Shown here one piece after another: positions 51,530 to 57,352 of a stretch of DNA of 64,000 bases (its first letter is position 1; each line of letters begins with the position of its first letter). This DNA is from Candidatus Parcubacteria bacterium (GTDB lineage Bacteria > Patescibacteriota > Patescibacteriia > Patescibacteriales > UBA12465). The translations under genes and the position numbers were made by a program. The notes below the pieces were generated by a model that was not told the DNA's origin, did not search any database, and saw only the letters and a list, made by a program, of their open reading frames with translations. The stretch spans positions 527,717 through 591,716 of the forward strand of contig AP029158.1 of assembly GCA_037076615.1 (NCBI GenBank), written 5' to 3'.

Positions 51530-53461
51530 TTATTTTTTAGTAAAATCAATTTCTTCGCCGGCCTCTAAATCCTCGCCGCTCGGCCACTTATCTAAAATTG
51601 GCGAGTCTAAATAAGAACTTTTTTTGAGAGAAGCGGACGCTGGTTTTTCGGTTGGCTTCTGTGGCTGTCCTTTAAAATCGCGTAAAGCCGCCTGCGCTAA
51701 ATCGGAGAGGGATAAAGCGGGGCCGCTCGCCGACTGATCGGCAAAGGGCTCCATGGCGGAGGGCGTAAAAGGGCGGACCTTCATCGGATTAGACTTCTTG
51801 GCGGGAGCTGTTCCAGTTGAGGCTTTCTGATAATTAACCGCTTTATTTTTAACAGGAGCTGCGGCTGGTCGCCTCGGTGAGCGCGGTGCCGGTGCCAGGG
51901 GCGGGGCTGATTGGGGGGCACTGACACTTAGTTTAGGAGTATTAATAGGTGGAGCCTTTTGCTCTAACTCTTGGCGACGCTCTTCCTTTTTCTTACTTAA
52001 ACACTGTTTACAAAAAACTGGTCGCACCCCATCGGGCTCAAAAGGAGTATAGGTGGTCGTGCCGCAAAGAGCACAAATTGAAGGAAATCCTTCCGGCGTA
52101 GAAGTTTCTTTGGGGCGAGGAGAAGCATGAACCGCCCGTTCACGAATAATGCGTTGCTCATTTAAAGCTGTCTCTTCCGCGTTAGCTTGATACCAACGTA
52201 CAATTTGCTCCTCAACCTCTTCGCGAGGAGTGGCGTAATGATCTCTGGACCAATTAATCGCGGCTTCTTCTTGACCGGTACGTTCGACTTTAGATAAAGG
52301 CGGTAGTCCTCGCGCTGAAAATGGCGTTGAAGCCACCCCGTCAATCATTAACTTGAGGTACATTTCGTATTTTGGCAAATTGACCAAATCTTCCTCGTTA
52401 AAAGTTGGTAAAAATTCCCTGGCTAATTCTTCAGCATCAGAGGCACCAACTCTAAAAGCAATCATCGTGCCGACGTTACCAAAAACCGCCGGTTTAACTT
52501 TTTCATTTAGCTGCTCAATATATTGATGAGCCAAAATCAAATTAAGTCTATACTTACGAGCCTCTGATAAAATATTAGCAAAGGAATCGGTAGAAAAATT
52601 CTGGAACTCATCAATATATAAATAGAAATCTCGACGCTGCTCCTCAGGAATATCGACGCGACTCATCGCCGCTAACTGAATCTTAGTAATCATCATTGCT
52701 CCCAGTAGAGCAGAATTATCTTCACCAATGCGGCCTTTAGATAAATTTAATATTAAAATCTTTCCTGTATCCATTACTTCGCGCAAATCAATAGAGGATT
52801 TTATTTGGCCAACAATATTACGCATCAAAGAACTGGATAGAAATTGACCAACCTTATTTTGAATTGGTGAAACCGCTTCCGAGGCAAATTTATCGGCATA
52901 GCCGGTAAACTCATTTTCCCAGAAAGCTTTAACAACCGGATCTTTGATATTAGCGACTACTCTTTTGCGGTAGGGCTTATCACTCAGCATGCGCACTACC
53001 CCCAGAAGAGTAGAACCAGGGTAATCTAAAATCGCTAAAATAGCATTACGCAAAATATACTCTAAGCGTGGCCCCCAAGAATCAGCCCACAATTTTTGAA
53101 AAACACCAATTAGACCAGAGGCAACTAAATGCTGCAGCCGACTGTCAACTTGTTCCACGACGTTAAAAGCAATCGGATAATCAATATCCGCCGGATTAAA
53201 ATAAATTACATCCTTAATCCTCTCCTCAGGAATATAGGCCATTACTTTTTCTGCTAAGTCGCCATGAGGATCGACGACCGCGACGCCACGACCAGCGCGA
53301 ATGTCATCAATAATCATATTTTCCAAAACTGTGGATTTCCCCATGCCGGTCTTCCCAATTAAATACATATGCCGGCGGCGATCGTCGGATTTAATACCAA
53401 ACTTTTTTCGTTGATTACGGAAAGTCGTTTCGGCAAAAACCGCAATTTCTGAATTAGACAT
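51530..53461 (-). CDS. TraD/VirD4-like (DUF87-type) P-loop ATPase with C-terminal CxxC-x17-CxxC zinc ribbon
   Basis: 643 aa with no TM. Walker A GKTGMGKST, Walker B FYLYIDEFQNF, CALCGTTTYTPFEPDGVRPVFCKQC (exactly CxxC-x17-CxxC), then a Pro/Ala-rich tail. Confidence 0.7.
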   Translation of the reverse strand: MSNSEIAVFAETTFRNQRKKFGIKSDDRRRHMYLIGKTGMGKSTVLENMIIDDIRAGRGVAVVDPHGDLAEKVMAYIPEERIKDVIYFNPADIDYPIAFNVVEQVDSRLQHLVASGLIGVFQKLWADSWGPRLEYILRNAILAILDYPGSTLLGVVRMLSDKPYRKRVVANIKDPVVKAFWENEFTGYADKFASEAVSPIQNKVGQFLSSSLMRNIVGQIKSSIDLREVMDTGKILILNLSKGRIGEDNSALLGAMMITKIQLAAMSRVDIPEEQRRDFYLYIDEFQNFSTDSFANILSEARKYRLNLILAHQYIEQLNEKVKPAVFGNVGTMIAFRVGASDAEELAREFLPTFNEEDLVNLPKYEMYLKLMIDGVASTPFSARGLPPLSKVERTGQEEAAINWSRDHYATPREEVEEQIVRWYQANAEETALNEQRIIRERAVHASPRPKETSTPEGFPSICALCGTTTYTPFEPDGVRPVFCKQCLSKKKEERRQELEQKAPPINTPKLSVSAPQSAPPLAPAPRSPRRPAAAPVKNKAVNYQKASTGTAPAKKSNPMKVRPFTPSAMEPFADQSASGPALSLSDLAQAALRDFKGQPQKPTEKPASASLKKSSYLDSPILDKWPSGEDLEAGEEIDFTKK

Positions 53462-53466
53462 AGTAA

Positions 53467-53736
53467 TTAATAATAAAGCTTATCCGGCAAAGAAGCGATT
53501 AATTCTTTTAAATAGCCGGGTAAAAAAATAATTCCTAGAATAATGGGGATAGCTATTATCAACGCCTGGACTACAAACCAGACCTGTCGCCACTTGATAA
53601 AGCGCTTAATAAGCTTTAAATCATTAGAAATTTTTTTCTGATCTTCTTTTATTTTTGTTAACTCTAAAAGAAGCCGAGATGGAGAATCTGAGGAAAAATT
53701 TTCTTTTTTTTCTAAATCTAAGGTCTCATTTGACAT
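53467..53736 (-). CDS. Small tail-anchored membrane protein (89 aa)
   Basis: Charged N-terminus plus one TM helix (VWFVVQALIIAIPIILGIIFL). Overlaps the nrdG 3' end by 19 nt. Confidence 0.5.
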   Translation of the reverse strand: MSNETLDLEKKENFSSDSPSRLLLELTKIKEDQKKISNDLKLIKRFIKWRQVWFVVQALIIAIPIILGIIFLPGYLKELIASLPDKLYY

Positions 53737-54440
53737 AATTTAACATATTTTTTTCCCACGGCGGCCATAGCGATCATTTCTTCGTCCTTAAAAGGTGGGG
53801 CCGACTCTAATTGCTGGTCCACCAAAGGGGTATCAGATTTAAATTTCTGTAAATACCAAGCATCTGCCCCGGAAATCATAGAACCCATTTCGCTAATATC
53901 AGCTAATTCTATAAATCCAGGAACTAAAGTAGTGCGGAATTCATGAGGCAAACCACTATTAATTACTAGTTTAGCACTTTTTTGAATCTTCTTACAGTCA
54001 AACAGCACCCCAACTAGACGAGAATATTTTTGTAAAGGGGCTTTTAAATCCATCGCTAGATAATCAATTAAACCCGCAGCTAACAATTCTTTGAGCATCT
54101 GCGGATTAGTGCCATTGGTGTCCAATTTTACCACAAATCCTAAAGCTCTAATTTTTTTAATGAAATCCGGTAGATCGGCGTGTAGGGTCGGCTCCCCGCC
54201 AGTAATTACTACTCCATCTAATTTTCCTCGCCGACTCTCTAAAAAAAGAAAAAACTCATTCTCGGAAATCTGAGAATCAGTTTTTTCATATTTTTTCCGC
54301 TTCGCTTCCGCCGCCGGTATAACTAATAAAGGATTGTAACAAAAATGACAGCGAAAATTACATCCTTGAGTAAAAACAATCGCCGCCACTTTATCGGGAA
54401 AATCTAAGAGCGTAATTTTTTCCAGGCCACCAATAATCAT
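53718..54440 (-). CDS. nrdG: Anaerobic ribonucleoside-triphosphate reductase activating protein
   Basis: 240 aa. LLDFPDK...GCNFRCHFCYNP radical-SAM motif and VVITGGEPT. Confidence 0.9.
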   Translation of the reverse strand: MIIGGLEKITLLDFPDKVAAIVFTQGCNFRCHFCYNPLLVIPAAEAKRKKYEKTDSQISENEFFLFLESRRGKLDGVVITGGEPTLHADLPDFIKKIRALGFVVKLDTNGTNPQMLKELLAAGLIDYLAMDLKAPLQKYSRLVGVLFDCKKIQKSAKLVINSGLPHEFRTTLVPGFIELADISEMGSMISGADAWYLQKFKSDTPLVDQQLESAPPFKDEEMIAMAAVGKKYVKLCQMRP

Positions 54441-54499: not shown

Positions 54500-54652
54500 T
54501 TAACAAGATTTTTTTTCAACTTCCAACTCATAATAACGACGATCAATATACTCGGAAGCTTTACCGGGGTTAAAATTTCTGACTGGCGTTAACCAACCGA
54601 CTACTCGGCTATAAACAATACATTCCTGTCTTTTAGTTTTAATGTTTTCCAT
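54500..54652 (-). CDS. nrdD: Stand-alone glycyl-radical module of class III RNR (50 aa)
   Basis: Own translation: MENIKTKRQECIVYSRVVGWLTPVRNFNPGKASEYIDRRYYELEVEKKSC. SRVVGW..FNPGK..E..R matches the NrdD C-terminal glycyl-radical consensus (RVxGY...FNxGKxxE). It falls below the 60-aa ORF-track cutoff and is in frame with nrdD across TAA TAA. Confidence 0.7.
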   Translation of the reverse strand: MENIKTKRQECIVYSRVVGWLTPVRNFNPGKASEYIDRRYYELEVEKKSC

Positions 54653-54670
54653 ATAATTTAATTTAAATTA

Positions 54671-56722
54671 TTATTTGGCGTTAGACTCTGAGGCCGTAAC
54701 GGAGGGGATATAACCAATTTCTTCATCACATTTAGGACAATATTTATGTTCACCTGATAAATAACCATGCTTGGGGCAAACCGAAAAAGTTGGCGTTAGA
54801 GTAAAGTAAGGCAAGCCGTAATTATTAACAATTTTTTTAACTAAATTTTTAGCGGCTTGTCCATTAGGCAGCCTTTCGCCCAAAAAGCCATGCAAAACCG
54901 TGCCTCCCGTATATTTAGATTGTAACTCATTTTGTAAATCCAAAGCTTCAAAAAGGTCGCTTGTAAAACCAACCGGTAAGTGAGTGGAGTTAGTGTAATA
55001 GGGAGCGGCAGACAACTCTTTAACTGCCTTATCATTGGCAAAAATAATCTCCGGATAAAGCTCTTTATCTTTTTTAGCAAAACGGTAAGTGCAGCCTTCT
55101 CCCGGTGTCGCCTCTAAATTATATAAATTATTAGTCTCTTCCTGAAAAGCTAAAAGGCGATCACGCATATAATCCAAAATTTCTAAAGCAAATTCTTGCC
55201 CCTCGGGACTGGCTATGCTTTTGCCTAATAAATTAAGAGTCGCCTCATTCATACCATTAATGCCAATGGTATTAAAATGGTTTTTCCAATAAGAACCGAA
55301 ACGGTCAAAAATATCTCGGAGATAAAAACGGGAGTAAGGATAAAGGCCATCTGAAGTAAACTTTTCTATCACTTTCCGTTTTGCCTCTAAACTATCTTTG
55401 GCTACCTCCATTAACCGGTCTAGGCGCCTCTTAAACTCTTCTTTATCTTTAGATAAATAACCAAGACGCGCTAAATTAATAGTTACCACCCCCAAAGAAC
55501 CGGTTAAAGGATTGGCGCCAAATAAGCCACCACCGCGTTTACGCAATTCCCGGTTATCTAAACGTAGACGACAACACATAGACCGCGCATCATCGCGATT
55601 CATATCTGAATTAACAAAATTGGAAAAATAAGGAATACCATACTTAGCAGTCATCTCCCACATCGGTTCTAAAGAGGGCCGATCCCAGTCAAAATTTTTA
55701 TCGATTTGATAGGTGGGAATCGGGAAGCCAAAAACGCGACCATTAGAATCGCCAGCCAGCATAACCTCGGCAAAAGCTTGATTAAAAAGATCCATCTCTT
55801 CTTGAAAGTCTTTATATTTTTCCGGCATTACCTGGCCGCCAATAATTACATTTTCCTCACCCACCTGCTTAGAAGGAGTAACATCTAAAGTGATGTTGGT
55901 AAAAGGGGTCTGAAAACCGACTCGGGTTGGCACATTAACGTTGAAGATAAACTCCTGTAAACATTGCTTAACCTCATTGTAGGAAAGCTGATCATAGCGA
56001 ATAAAAGGCGCTAGATAAGTATCAAAATTAGAAAAAGCCTGAGCGCCAGCTGCCTCGCCCTGAAGAGTGTAGAAAAAATTAATAACTTGCCCAAGGGCAG
56101 TGCGAAAATGTTTAGGCGGTTTGCTTTGAACTTTTTCGTCCACCCCCCTAAACCCTCTAATCAGCAAATCTTTTAAATCCCAGCCACAACAGTAGGGGGC
56201 TAGTAGGCCTAAGTCATGAATATGTAAGTCACCGCCAACATGAGCTTGGCGAATTTTTTCCGGATAAAGTTTATTCAGCCAATATTGAGAAGAAACCGCC
56301 GAAGCAATATAATTATTTAAACCCTGAACCGAAAAACTCATATTACTGTTCTCCTTGAGGCGCCAATCAGCTCGTCCTAAATAATCTTCCATCAGCTTTT
56401 CGCCGGAAGTAGTTTGATTAATATCACGCAATTGACGACGTTGATCGCGATAAATAATATAAGCCTTGGCCAAGGCCGGCTCGTTACTCTCAATAAGTGT
56501 TGACTCCACTAAATCTTGGACTTCTTCCACGGCTGGAATAGTGTGTTTGTGAAATTTTTTGGAAATTTTTTCCAAAACCTTAGTAGTTAGTTCATCGGCT
56601 CGCCTTAAATCAGCTCCACCAACCGCTTCTTGAGCTTTACAAATAGCAGTCACAATCTTATTGCGATCAAAAGGAACTATCTCTCCTGATCGTTTGCGAA
56701 TTTGTGTAATTATTTCTGTCAT
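54671..56722 (-). CDS. nrdD: Anaerobic ribonucleoside-triphosphate reductase, large (catalytic) part lacking the glycyl-radical tail
   Basis: 683 aa. N-terminal ATP-cone, SMCCRLRLD, and zinc ribbon CPKH...CPKC near the end. It terminates with TAA TAA before any RVxGY motif. Confidence 0.93.
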   Translation of the reverse strand: MTEIITQIRKRSGEIVPFDRNKIVTAICKAQEAVGGADLRRADELTTKVLEKISKKFHKHTIPAVEEVQDLVESTLIESNEPALAKAYIIYRDQRRQLRDINQTTSGEKLMEDYLGRADWRLKENSNMSFSVQGLNNYIASAVSSQYWLNKLYPEKIRQAHVGGDLHIHDLGLLAPYCCGWDLKDLLIRGFRGVDEKVQSKPPKHFRTALGQVINFFYTLQGEAAGAQAFSNFDTYLAPFIRYDQLSYNEVKQCLQEFIFNVNVPTRVGFQTPFTNITLDVTPSKQVGEENVIIGGQVMPEKYKDFQEEMDLFNQAFAEVMLAGDSNGRVFGFPIPTYQIDKNFDWDRPSLEPMWEMTAKYGIPYFSNFVNSDMNRDDARSMCCRLRLDNRELRKRGGGLFGANPLTGSLGVVTINLARLGYLSKDKEEFKRRLDRLMEVAKDSLEAKRKVIEKFTSDGLYPYSRFYLRDIFDRFGSYWKNHFNTIGINGMNEATLNLLGKSIASPEGQEFALEILDYMRDRLLAFQEETNNLYNLEATPGEGCTYRFAKKDKELYPEIIFANDKAVKELSAAPYYTNSTHLPVGFTSDLFEALDLQNELQSKYTGGTVLHGFLGERLPNGQAAKNLVKKIVNNYGLPYFTLTPTFSVCPKHGYLSGEHKYCPKCDEEIGYIPSVTASESNAK

Positions 56723-56762: not shown

Positions 56763-57221
56763 TTATTTTTTATCTTTTACCAATTTATTTAATTCCCTTC
56801 TAAATTCGTTAGCATCTTTAAACTGTTCATAAACCGAGGCGTAGCGGATGTAGGCAACTTGATCAACTCTCTTAAGTTGTTTCATGACTACTTGGCCTAC
56901 TTGCTGGGAAGTAATTTCATTCTTCCGAAACTTTTGCAATTCACGCTCAATAGAATGAATTAGACGTTTAAATTTATCTTCAGTAATCGCCCTTTTTTCT
57001 AAAGCTTTTTTTAGACCGGAAACTAGTTTCTCTCGATTGTAAGACTCCCGCCGACCATCGCGTTTTACAATCATTAAATCTAAAATTTCTACTTCTTCAT
57101 AAGTAGAAAAACGAAAGCCACATTTTAAACACTCGCGACGACGACGAATAGAAAGACCATCACTAGCCGCTCGAGAATCAACAACTTTGGTGTCATCAAA
57201 GTAGCAAATTGGACATTTCAT
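56763..57221 (-). CDS. nrdR: Transcriptional repressor NrdR
   Basis: The ATG at 57221 gives the canonical MKCPICYFDDTKVVDSR zinc ribbon plus ATP-cone; the track start at 57227 is TTG. Confidence 0.93.
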   Translation of the reverse strand: MKCPICYFDDTKVVDSRAASDGLSIRRRRECLKCGFRFSTYEEVEILDLMIVKRDGRRESYNREKLVSGLKKALEKRAITEDKFKRLIHSIERELQKFRKNEITSQQVGQVVMKQLKRVDQVAYIRYASVYEQFKDANEFRRELNKLVKDKK

Positions 57222-57265
57222 AGGCAAAAAATTAATAAAAAATCAATAATTCGTCAAATCTAAAG

Positions 57266-57281
57266 CAACAAGATGTGGTGG
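57266..57281. promoter_or_regulatory. NrdR box (proximal)
   Basis: CAACAAGATGTGGTGG compared with the consensus acaCwAtATaTwGtgt; the conserved C, A, AT, T and G positions are kept. Confidence 0.55.
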
Positions 57282-57298
57282 TTAATTACATATTTAAG

Positions 57299-57314
57299 GC
57301 CCTATATCTTGTAA
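57299..57314. promoter_or_regulatory. NrdR box (distal)
   Basis: On the minus strand TTACAAGATATAGGGC matches 11 of the 16 positions (12 if the leading lower-case a is counted) of acaCwAtATaTwGtgt. Centre-to-centre distance to the other box is 33 bp. Confidence 0.6.
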
Positions 57315-57323
57315 TTATTTTCT

Positions 57324-57352
57324 ATTGTAGCAAAAAAAATCGCCCCTGCCAA
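57324..57352 (-). promoter_or_regulatory. sigma70-type promoter for nrdR-nrdD-nrdG
   Basis: On the minus strand: TTGGCA, 17-nt spacer, TACAAT. The NrdR boxes start 9 nt downstream of the -10. Confidence 0.55.

Follow-up and report, generated by a model that had tools for sequence, protein, structure and literature searches.

A probable two-piece class III ribonucleotide reductase of Patescibacteria with its glycyl-radical loop on a separately encoded 50-residue peptide

The window analyzed here is a 64,000-nucleotide stretch of the genome of a Candidatus Parcubacteria bacterium (GenBank assembly GCA_037076615.1, contig AP029158.1, positions 527,717 to 591,716), and it appears to encode a class III (anaerobic) ribonucleotide reductase (RNR) whose catalytic protein, NrdD, is divided between two genes. 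The minus strand carries, after a promoter-like site, nrdR, a 683-residue nrdD, an open reading frame (ORF) for a 50-residue peptide, and nrdG, in this order. In class III enzymes, the activase NrdG puts a radical on a glycine in a loop, which is housed in the barrel and faces the finger loop. Catalysis is initiated by a thiyl radical, and exposure to oxygen breaks the chain at the glycine. The large ORF (54671..56722, minus strand) encodes the catalytic subunit with its ATP-cone (residues 7 to 96), barrel, and zinc site and without a radical segment. The peptide gene (54500..54652, minus strand) encodes MENIKTKRQECIVYSRVVGWLTPVRNFNPGKASEYIDRRYYELEVEKKSC, which corresponds to positions 530 to 562 of the 562-position Pfam NRDD profile. 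The predicted radical residue of the peptide is Gly19 (codon 54598-54596, minus strand), located within YSRVVG19W and followed by FNPGK..E..DR.

The large ORF ends in ...IPSVTASESNAK (in another excerpt, ...CPKCDEEIGYIPSVTASESNAK, then TAA TAA), and its stop codon (TAA, 54673-54671) is immediately followed by a second in-frame TAA (54670-54668). The remainder of the 18-nucleotide A/T-rich spacer consists of five sense codons (TTT AAA TTA AAT TAT), after which the ATG at 54652 opens the peptide gene; the whole junction occupies 54653..54673 on the minus strand. The two ORFs share a frame, and stops close all three frames between them. This arrangement, first described in an initial annotation made from the DNA alone, is confirmed in the sequence. 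In 8 assemblies made independently of different samples (JGI, ENA, and Logan), the 60 junction bases, including TAATAA, are identical to those of the window, which rules out an assembly error as the cause of the tandem stops. The exact 50-residue protein is encoded on 21 contigs.

Profile searches show that the two ORFs tile the NrdD family with no gap. In Pfam NRDD (PF13597), the large ORF spans positions 1 to 532 (E value of 1.5e-186, 622 bits) and the small one spans positions 530 to 562 (E value of 4.2e-6). In NCBIfam NF006126 (684 positions), the respective ranges are 2 to 652 (1032 bits, cutoff of 548) and 648 to 683, and the large ORF also scores 530 bits with TIGR02487 (cutoff of 326). 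On the NrdD of Thermotoga maritima, the large ORF aligns to residues 99 to 610 and the small one to residues 615 to 645, so that the break falls between residues 610 and 615. Since the profile and structure alignments tile, the break can be placed in the short stretch between the zinc site and the strand that leads to the radical glycine. The initial annotation had proposed exactly this division, with a large ORF that stops before the glycyl-radical region and a small one that covers it, and the profile coordinates bear it out. In a Pfam scan of the small ORF at E values up to 1, NRDD is the sole match, with no hit to Gly_radical (PF01228/IPR011140).

The large subunit retains the catalytic residues of the family. 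The finger-loop cysteines Cys383 and Cys384 (SMCCRLRL; codons at 55571..55576, minus strand), which, judging from the class III RNR structures of T4 and T. maritima, presumably accept the radical from the glycine, are invariant in the alignments of split and fused NrdD sequences. The same holds for E537, P540, E542, G607, and H611. The zinc site, C649-x2-H652...C662-x2-C665 (CPKH...CPKC; codons at 54728..54778, minus strand), is kept on the large subunit, and its ligands C649, C662, and C665 are invariant across the split and fused sequences. It is followed by a variable tail of 16 to 18 residues. The initial annotation had noted that the large ORF contains no RVxGY/FNxGK motif, and the RxxG[YFW] motif is indeed absent from this ORF and from its 120 closest relatives (76 to 100% identity, 675 to 703 residues), all of which end shortly after CPKC-DEE(I/M)G(Y/F), with variable tails. 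By its sequence, the large subunit is an NrdD in every respect tested except for the radical loop in cis.

The tail of the large subunit (54674-54727 in the window; relatives P0064 to P0183) starts with the conserved DEE(I/M)G(Y/F), the rest being variable. MAFFT pairs the segment 'EEIGYIPSV' of this tail with 'RVVGYLRPV' of the fused relatives. This segment could be a vestige of an ancestral Gly loop, left by duplication and subsequent decay, or a chance likeness. Cysteine-rich C-terminal tails are found in 17 of 76 large subunits (e.g., P0097, P0106, P0110, P0138, P0141, and P0162) and in 10 of 76 peptides (e.g., L003, L027, L043, L059, and L075). Examples from both sets include CSTC, SCCRD, NPAGC, SCC, GGGCGSCGCDK, and NCNCNSNC; such tails recall the redox-shuttle tails of class I and class II RNRs.

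The same split is found throughout the related genomes. A set with one genome per GTDB species yielded 80 loci, 3 of which end at a contig edge. In 77 of the 77 informative loci (66 to 90% protein identity), a small ORF lies between the large ORF and nrdG; in one of them it is partly masked by Ns. The consensus peptide of these loci is MSPIxTxRQECxVYSRVVGWLTPxxNxNxGKxxEYxDRKT. The spacer between nrdD and the peptide gene ranges from 0 to 249 nucleotides (median of about 79), all three relative frames (0, 1, and 2) are present among 76 loci, and the stop codon of the large ORF may be TAA, TAG, or TGA. In 62 of 74 cases, the peptide starts at an ATG of its own and with the tripeptide MSP. Two further genome contexts, including that of a Parcubacteria genome from 2015 (GCA_000997945.1), show the canonical gene order.

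When 42 split and fused sequences are aligned, six residues of the peptide do not vary: R16, G19, P23, N28, E34, and R38. Synonymous sites are saturated between species (proportion of synonymous differences, about 0.80), and the proportion of nonsynonymous differences is 0.228 for the peptide versus 0.193 for the large subunit. Among the 20 pairs without saturation, the ratio of nonsynonymous to synonymous rates (dN/dS) is 0.11 for the peptide versus 0.14 for the large subunit. These values indicate that the peptide is under purifying selection as strong as that acting on the large subunit. The split is real and conserved, and it is ancient; with the same junction in 8 assemblies and its recurrence in every related genome examined, it is far beyond chance. 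The related genomes thus show both the split and the selection on the small ORF for which the initial annotation had suggested a search.

With the small ORF as the query, 63 protein clusters were retrieved, all of them 40 to 75 residues long and with no full-length proteins among the matches listed. Overall, free-standing homologs of 44 to 75 residues make up more than 120 clusters. A profile built from split and fused Gly loops matches 7987 proteins significantly, and the best 120 of these are all free-standing proteins of 44 to 71 residues, with identity to the window peptide down to 47%. Trp follows the radical glycine in 72 of 76 split peptides (RVVGW), and Tyr or Phe does so in the fused relatives listed (RVVGY); the Trp may be a signature of the free-standing form. 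The phenomenon is broader than the initial annotation assumed: the family is large and spans Patescibacteria and phages rather than being confined to a single genome.

The titles of the locus records are mostly Patescibacteria, Falkowbacteria, Parcubacteria, or Paceibacterota. Many metagenome-assembled genome records with the Patescibacteria-type locus are titled 'uncultured Gammaproteobacteria bacterium', 'Planctomycetota', 'Nanoarchaeia archaeon', or 'Methylomirabilis' (L002 to L005, L008 to L010 and others, L027, and L064; P0059); these are likely mislabelled or mis-binned. The 44- to 50-residue peptides are annotated variously as the full reductase, as a 'large subunit', or as hypothetical proteins.

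A 27-member subset of 76 genomes, which represents a Falkowbacteria-like subclade and does not include the window, has a sigma-70-like element, TTGTAA-N17-TATAAT, directly upstream of the peptide gene. Loci with this element include L005, L006, L008, L009, L011, L015, L016, L019 to L023, L025, L035, L037 to L041, L044, L069, and L078, among others. Many of the sites are followed by a leader of about 40 to 45 nucleotides that forms a single long hairpin, genome-specific in sequence (z-scores of -1 to -3). The putative internal promoter and leader suggest separate transcription, and perhaps regulation, of the peptide gene and nrdG in this subclade. No promoter is found inside the 18-nucleotide spacer of the window, and a consensus scan gave fewer promoter-like sites than in shuffled sequence.

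Free-standing peptides are also found in viruses. Among 80 viral loci retrieved from IMG/VR with the peptide profile (L090 to L169), 76 have a free-standing peptide with neither an NrdD barrel nor NrdG within ±4 kb; in L115, it is encoded beside the genes for the small and large terminase subunits. The viral peptides nearest to that of the window (62 to 70% identity, with the RVVGW/LTPV signature) are found on none of the 80 best viral NrdD contigs, and about 10 of 80 viral NrdD loci are split. A search of the GenBank phage collection with a viral peptide as the query gave 7 records, two of which were inspected: phiCTP1 encodes a fused NrdD and ANMV-1 an orphan module. The latter, an archaeal virus (KP703175.1, 38.5 kb; L172, 25525-25959), encodes only a 144-residue protein with a zinc ribbon and a Gly loop, which is annotated as the reductase. 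PHROGs contains no family for the window peptide, and some viral peptides match phrog_4132 ('unknown function') alone, weakly. The orphan viral peptides may represent auxiliary 'radical parts' of phages.

The viral proteins also reveal a second break point. Modules of 99 to 144 residues carry their own CxxC...CxxC zinc ribbon before the Gly loop; they include L115 (3809-4108), L141, L145, and L167, as well as the ANMV-1 protein. A break before the zinc site in these modules versus after it in the window suggests independent fission events.

The split state extends to other clades. A library of representatives at 50% identity was searched with the large ORF, and the best 150 representatives were classified: about 62 are fused, about 66 are loop-less, and 22 are unclassifiable. 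In the fused representatives, just 3 to 5 residues separate CxxC from (E)VYSRVVGY, and the loop-less ones stop 16 to 60 residues past TPTFSxC, the start of the zinc site, without a radical loop. Three loop-less representatives from other clades are each closely accompanied by a small ORF of the NRDD family; their surroundings are phage-like, and the gene order differs among them. In the first (L086), the large gene is followed by an ORF of the DUF7487 family, the activase gene, and a peptide of 61/66 residues; in the second (L088), a 50-residue peptide directly follows the large gene; and in the third (L089), the large gene, which contains an insertion, is followed by a 64-residue ORF, a 46-residue peptide, dcd, tk, and the activase gene. 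In a rough neighbor-joining tree of the 60 of 128 representatives that passed the coverage filter (the reduction being due to poor trimming of intein-bearing sequences), the split forms occupy two or more distinct clades, with fused forms in between.

Insertions abound in the NrdD genes of this group. Very many of the relatives P0184 to P0333 are 800 to 1880 residues long and match the query in 2 to 4 stretches, with recurrent insertions near query positions ~170, 220, 270, 384, and 545. These insertions look intein-like, and mobile elements appear to accumulate in this gene family. A gene for an intein/LAGLIDADG protein adjoins the L088 locus. The 353-residue DUF7487 ORF in L086 (5116-6177) begins 7 nucleotides past the loop-less nrdD and parts it from the activase and peptide genes; it contains six 'xxKYGVxN' repeats and, at its C terminus, a ...CDFYIP...FIEYNG... 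segment. Possibly, this ORF is a homing-endonuclease-like element that occupies the break point.

Structure prediction was carried out on a 'restored fusion', in which the large subunit up to CPKC was followed by Thr6 and the rest of the peptide. The alignment comprised 50 fused relatives, and the joint mirrors the spacing of the nearest fused relatives (CPKC-TIKQPC-EVYSR). The AlphaFold model has a mean predicted local distance difference test score (pLDDT) of 91.3 and a predicted template modeling score of 0.85. Its peptide-derived part (pLDDT of 86 to 94) forms a β-hairpin (residues 672 to 677 and 680 to 683) and an α-helix (residues 689 to 697). Foldseek searches with this model give as top matches the class III RNRs of Prevotella copri, Streptococcus thermophilus, T. 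maritima, and T4, with template modeling scores of 0.6 to 0.76. The model demonstrates full compatibility of the peptide sequence with the place that the radical domain normally occupies. Mixed MAFFT alignments misplaced the Gly loop, either to the middle of the barrel or onto the 'EEIGY' tail of the large subunit, and were kept out of the modeling.

The neighboring genes are those expected of a class III system. The nrdG gene (53718..54440, minus strand) encodes a 240-residue radical S-adenosylmethionine (radical-SAM) activase of the NrdG2 type (TIGR02495, 212.9 bits, cutoff of 131), and nrdR (56763..57227, minus strand) encodes a complete 154-residue repressor of RNR genes with a zinc ribbon and an ATP-cone (PF22811 and PF03477). 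Both genes are intact, as the initial annotation stated. Each is in its place in 77 of the 80 related loci, nrdR upstream of nrdD and nrdG downstream of the peptide gene.

The promoter-like site upstream of nrdR (57324..57352, minus strand; TTGGCA-17-TACAAT with a TG, a consensus match only) is likely the promoter of the putative operon. It is preceded by the rho-independent terminator of the upstream ftsZ (57420-57403). Possible NrdR boxes are seen at 57270-57320 (minus strand), upstream of nrdR and downstream of the -10 element of the promoter-like site: two stretches with partial palindromic symmetry, ACAAGATAT... and ...ACCACATCTTGT, spaced about 30 nucleotides apart. No intron, riboswitch, or other RNA was detected with Rfam in the window operon or in five loci with long spacers. 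Two genes downstream of nrdG, a 643-residue coupling-protein ATPase similar to TraG/VirD4/TrwB (51530-53461, minus strand) is encoded, with a zinc-finger-like CxxC...CxxC segment at its C terminus. This gene adjoins the operon in other assemblies of the same organism, too.

The locus is best read as a working class III RNR made of two polypeptides, with the Gly loop on the 50-residue peptide, and a probability of about 0.8 can be assigned to this reading. Conservation, selection, and profile tiling strongly support the earlier suggestion of a functional split rather than decay, and the split is almost certainly functional. In the proposed mechanism, NrdG would abstract a hydrogen from Gly19 of the peptide. 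The peptide would dock noncovalently into the barrel as a β-hairpin and a helix, where the C terminus of an ordinary NrdD sits, and the radical would then move from the docked peptide to Cys383/384, with the usual catalysis to follow. After oxygen damage, a fresh peptide might replace the cleaved one. Noncovalent assembly, activation by NrdG of the free or bound peptide, and exchange after damage as the selective advantage are the parts of this scheme that we infer. Because the large subunit has no radical glycine of its own, the peptide would be obligatory rather than a backup. With the radical segment separate and cheap, oxygen cleavage at the glycine would cost about 47 residues, not a 730-residue enzyme.

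It is tempting to go one step further and to regard the peptide as a diffusible, consumable cofactor, charged by NrdG for a glycine-less subunit and replaced after damage by O2, with the copies in phages of these bacteria and of archaea, as orphan Gly-loop or zinc-ribbon plus Gly-loop genes, sustaining deoxyribonucleotide synthesis in the host during infection. This extension is offered tentatively and is somewhat less likely than not; if true, it would provide the first obligate two-component glycyl-radical enzyme and the first case of spare-part logic for RNR. The idea of a replaceable cofactor, which the initial annotation likened to the spare-part protein GrcA (see below), is plausible, and the orphan phage peptides and the internal promoter of the subclade make it more attractive.

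Several points weigh against a two-piece enzyme or against its proposed advantage. Two-piece function is deduced from sequence comparison and from a fused model, and that model speaks for compatibility rather than assembly, because the covalent fusion is artificial and its alignment comes from fused relatives. A concatenation of the natural tail and head, modeled with a shallow alignment of close homologs, has a mean pLDDT of 59, with the peptide part below 30. The Pfam score of the small ORF, 26.1 bits, is marginally under the gathering threshold of 26.2, as expected of a fragment that covers 33 positions. The spacer of the window is too small for a separate promoter, and a four-base Shine-Dalgarno-like sequence is found at only 12 of 74 peptide genes. 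Finally, a stable gene fission can be explained without any advantage of replacement.

This last point leads to the first of the alternatives, in which nrdD was cut in the linker after the zinc site by a mobile element (a homing endonuclease or an event associated with an intein) or by a nonsense mutation plus restart, and the Gly loop, binding with sufficient affinity, became a permanent small subunit that persists because the change was harmless, not because the peptide can be replaced. Such a neutral fission has the same structure and chemistry as the favored reading and differs from it only in the selective reason. The intein-like insertions that crowd the NrdD genes of this group (800 to 1800 residues, 2 to 4 matched stretches) and the DUF7487 ORF with repeated modules, located exactly at the break in L086, are in its favor, and the short spacer of the window suggests simple cotranslation from a single mRNA. 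Precedents are the nrdA of phage Aeh1, split by mobE and functional, and the split class II NrdJa/NrdJb. However, neutral fission leaves unexplained the phage contigs with the peptide only, the conserved internal promoter in 27 of 76 genomes, and the presence of the split in two or more distinct clades and at two different positions, one on either side of the zinc ribbon. It is considered unlikely as an account of why the split is maintained.

Far less probable is the production of one chain from the two ORFs by read-through, bypassing, frameshifting, RNA splicing, or trans-splicing of a split intein. The window, taken alone, might suggest recoding, with its two ORFs in the same frame, two stops and five codons apart, and inteins are common in the relatives. 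Across the 76 loci, however, the relative frame varies, the spacers of up to 249 nucleotides are full of stops, and in some loci other genes intervene between the two parts, which excludes read-through, frameshifting, and bypassing; besides, the peptide has its own conserved ATG and MSP start. The 18-nucleotide spacer and the lack of any match to an Rfam intron or other RNA family exclude introns. The N- and C-terminal fragments of split inteins total more than ~120 residues, adopt the HINT fold, and have conserved blocks at the splice junctions. A split intein was rejected, as the tail (about 16 residues) and head (about 8 residues) provide only some 25 to 30 variable residues in total, too few for a HINT fold, and the Pfam intein domain is found in neither ORF.

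The peptide might instead serve some other partner, for instance as a decoy that titrates NrdG, with the truncated NrdD being noncatalytic or having a different role. The viral orphan copies, which exist without an adjacent NrdD, would fit such a function, yet the bacterial peptide gene is strictly linked to nrdG and to an nrdD without the glycyl-radical domain, the large subunit keeps all invariant catalytic residues while lacking a radical site of its own, and the peptide is the exact missing piece by both profile and model. This makes a different partner highly improbable. An assembly or sequencing error, or a recent pseudogene with a leftover small ORF, has in its favor only the bare stop codons within a normally continuous gene, and its probability is negligible given the reproducible junction, the occurrence of the split in all 77 species genomes despite saturated synonymous sites, the dN/dS of about 0.11 for the small ORF, and the invariant catalytic residues.

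The favored reading of a two-piece enzyme has several implications. It means that an RNR can have its radical domain as a separate subunit, which works or has at least been under selection for a very long time. It would offer experimenters a minimal natural substrate of NrdG and a clean system for the entry of the radical loop into the barrel and its exit, a step thought to be central to the allosteric regulation of class III RNR. It suggests a cheap strategy for the repair of oxygen damage in the small-genome Patescibacteria, which make up a large share of bacterial diversity, and, in the orphan radical peptides, a possible new class of phage auxiliary genes. It also exposes a systematic annotation problem: ORFs of 44 to 75 residues are easily missed or labelled as the full enzyme or a 'large subunit', and the main gene then looks truncated.

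To our knowledge, the radical glycine of every characterized glycyl-radical enzyme resides on the catalytic chain, the sole exception in trans being GrcA, a backup for pyruvate formate-lyase (PFL). No description of a separately encoded NrdD radical peptide was found in open-access papers and bioRxiv, in agreement with the initial annotation, with most subscription journals and RNRdb lying outside this search. By sequence and model (NF006126, NRDD, and Foldseek), the proteins described here belong to the same family as the canonical class III NrdD/NrdG systems of T4, Escherichia coli, T. maritima, and P. copri. They share with canonical NrdD the ATP-cone, barrel, finger-loop cysteines, zinc site, and RVxG[YW]...NxGK..E..R loop and with the canonical systems an adjacent radical-SAM activase and the nrdR regulator. 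The difference is that the radical glycine of canonical NrdD is in the C terminus of the same chain, 3 to 5 residues past the zinc site in the nearest fused relatives, whereas in the window a gene of its own encodes the product of about 47 residues that carries it.

Other RNR genes are known to be broken. The class I gene nrdA of Aeromonas phage Aeh1 is split by the homing endonuclease mobE, and the enzyme is still functional; phage nrdD genes are interrupted by group I introns, inteins, or unknown events, as in T4 and phiAS4 (PMC3653736). These cases resemble the present one in that RNR genes are broken by the traffic of mobile elements, with a possible endonuclease-like ORF at the L086 break. 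However, the breaks in Aeh1, T4, and phiAS4 lie in the gene body or are spliced out, none of them frees the glycyl-radical loop as a conserved peptide, and, unlike the split described here, none is conserved across a phylum-level radiation. The class II RNR NrdJa/NrdJb of Pseudomonas aeruginosa and of Thermus phage phiYS40 is, as cited in PMC9669993 and PMC3653736, encoded by two consecutive ORFs whose products form an active complex. It is similar to the locus of the window in having the RNR catalytic chain in two ORFs with a short spacer, but it belongs to another RNR class, and its second piece is a large C-terminal domain (IscU-like, with a zinc finger and redox cysteines) that does not bear the radical.

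The closest functional parallel is GrcA (YfiD), together with Y06I of T4, a small protein with a glycyl-radical loop that is activated by the cognate activase and supplies the radical segment in trans to PFL (PMC8683613). Rescue by such a spare part has been shown for PFL only and has been speculated upon for other glycyl-radical enzymes (PMC8683613). Like GrcA, the peptide described here is a free-standing small protein that carries a radical loop in trans. The two differ in ancestry, GrcA being homologous to the C terminus of PFL (Pfam Gly_radical) and the peptide to NrdD, and also in their role: GrcA is a backup, required only once damage has occurred, for a PFL with a glycine of its own, whereas the peptide would be an obligatory part of its enzyme.

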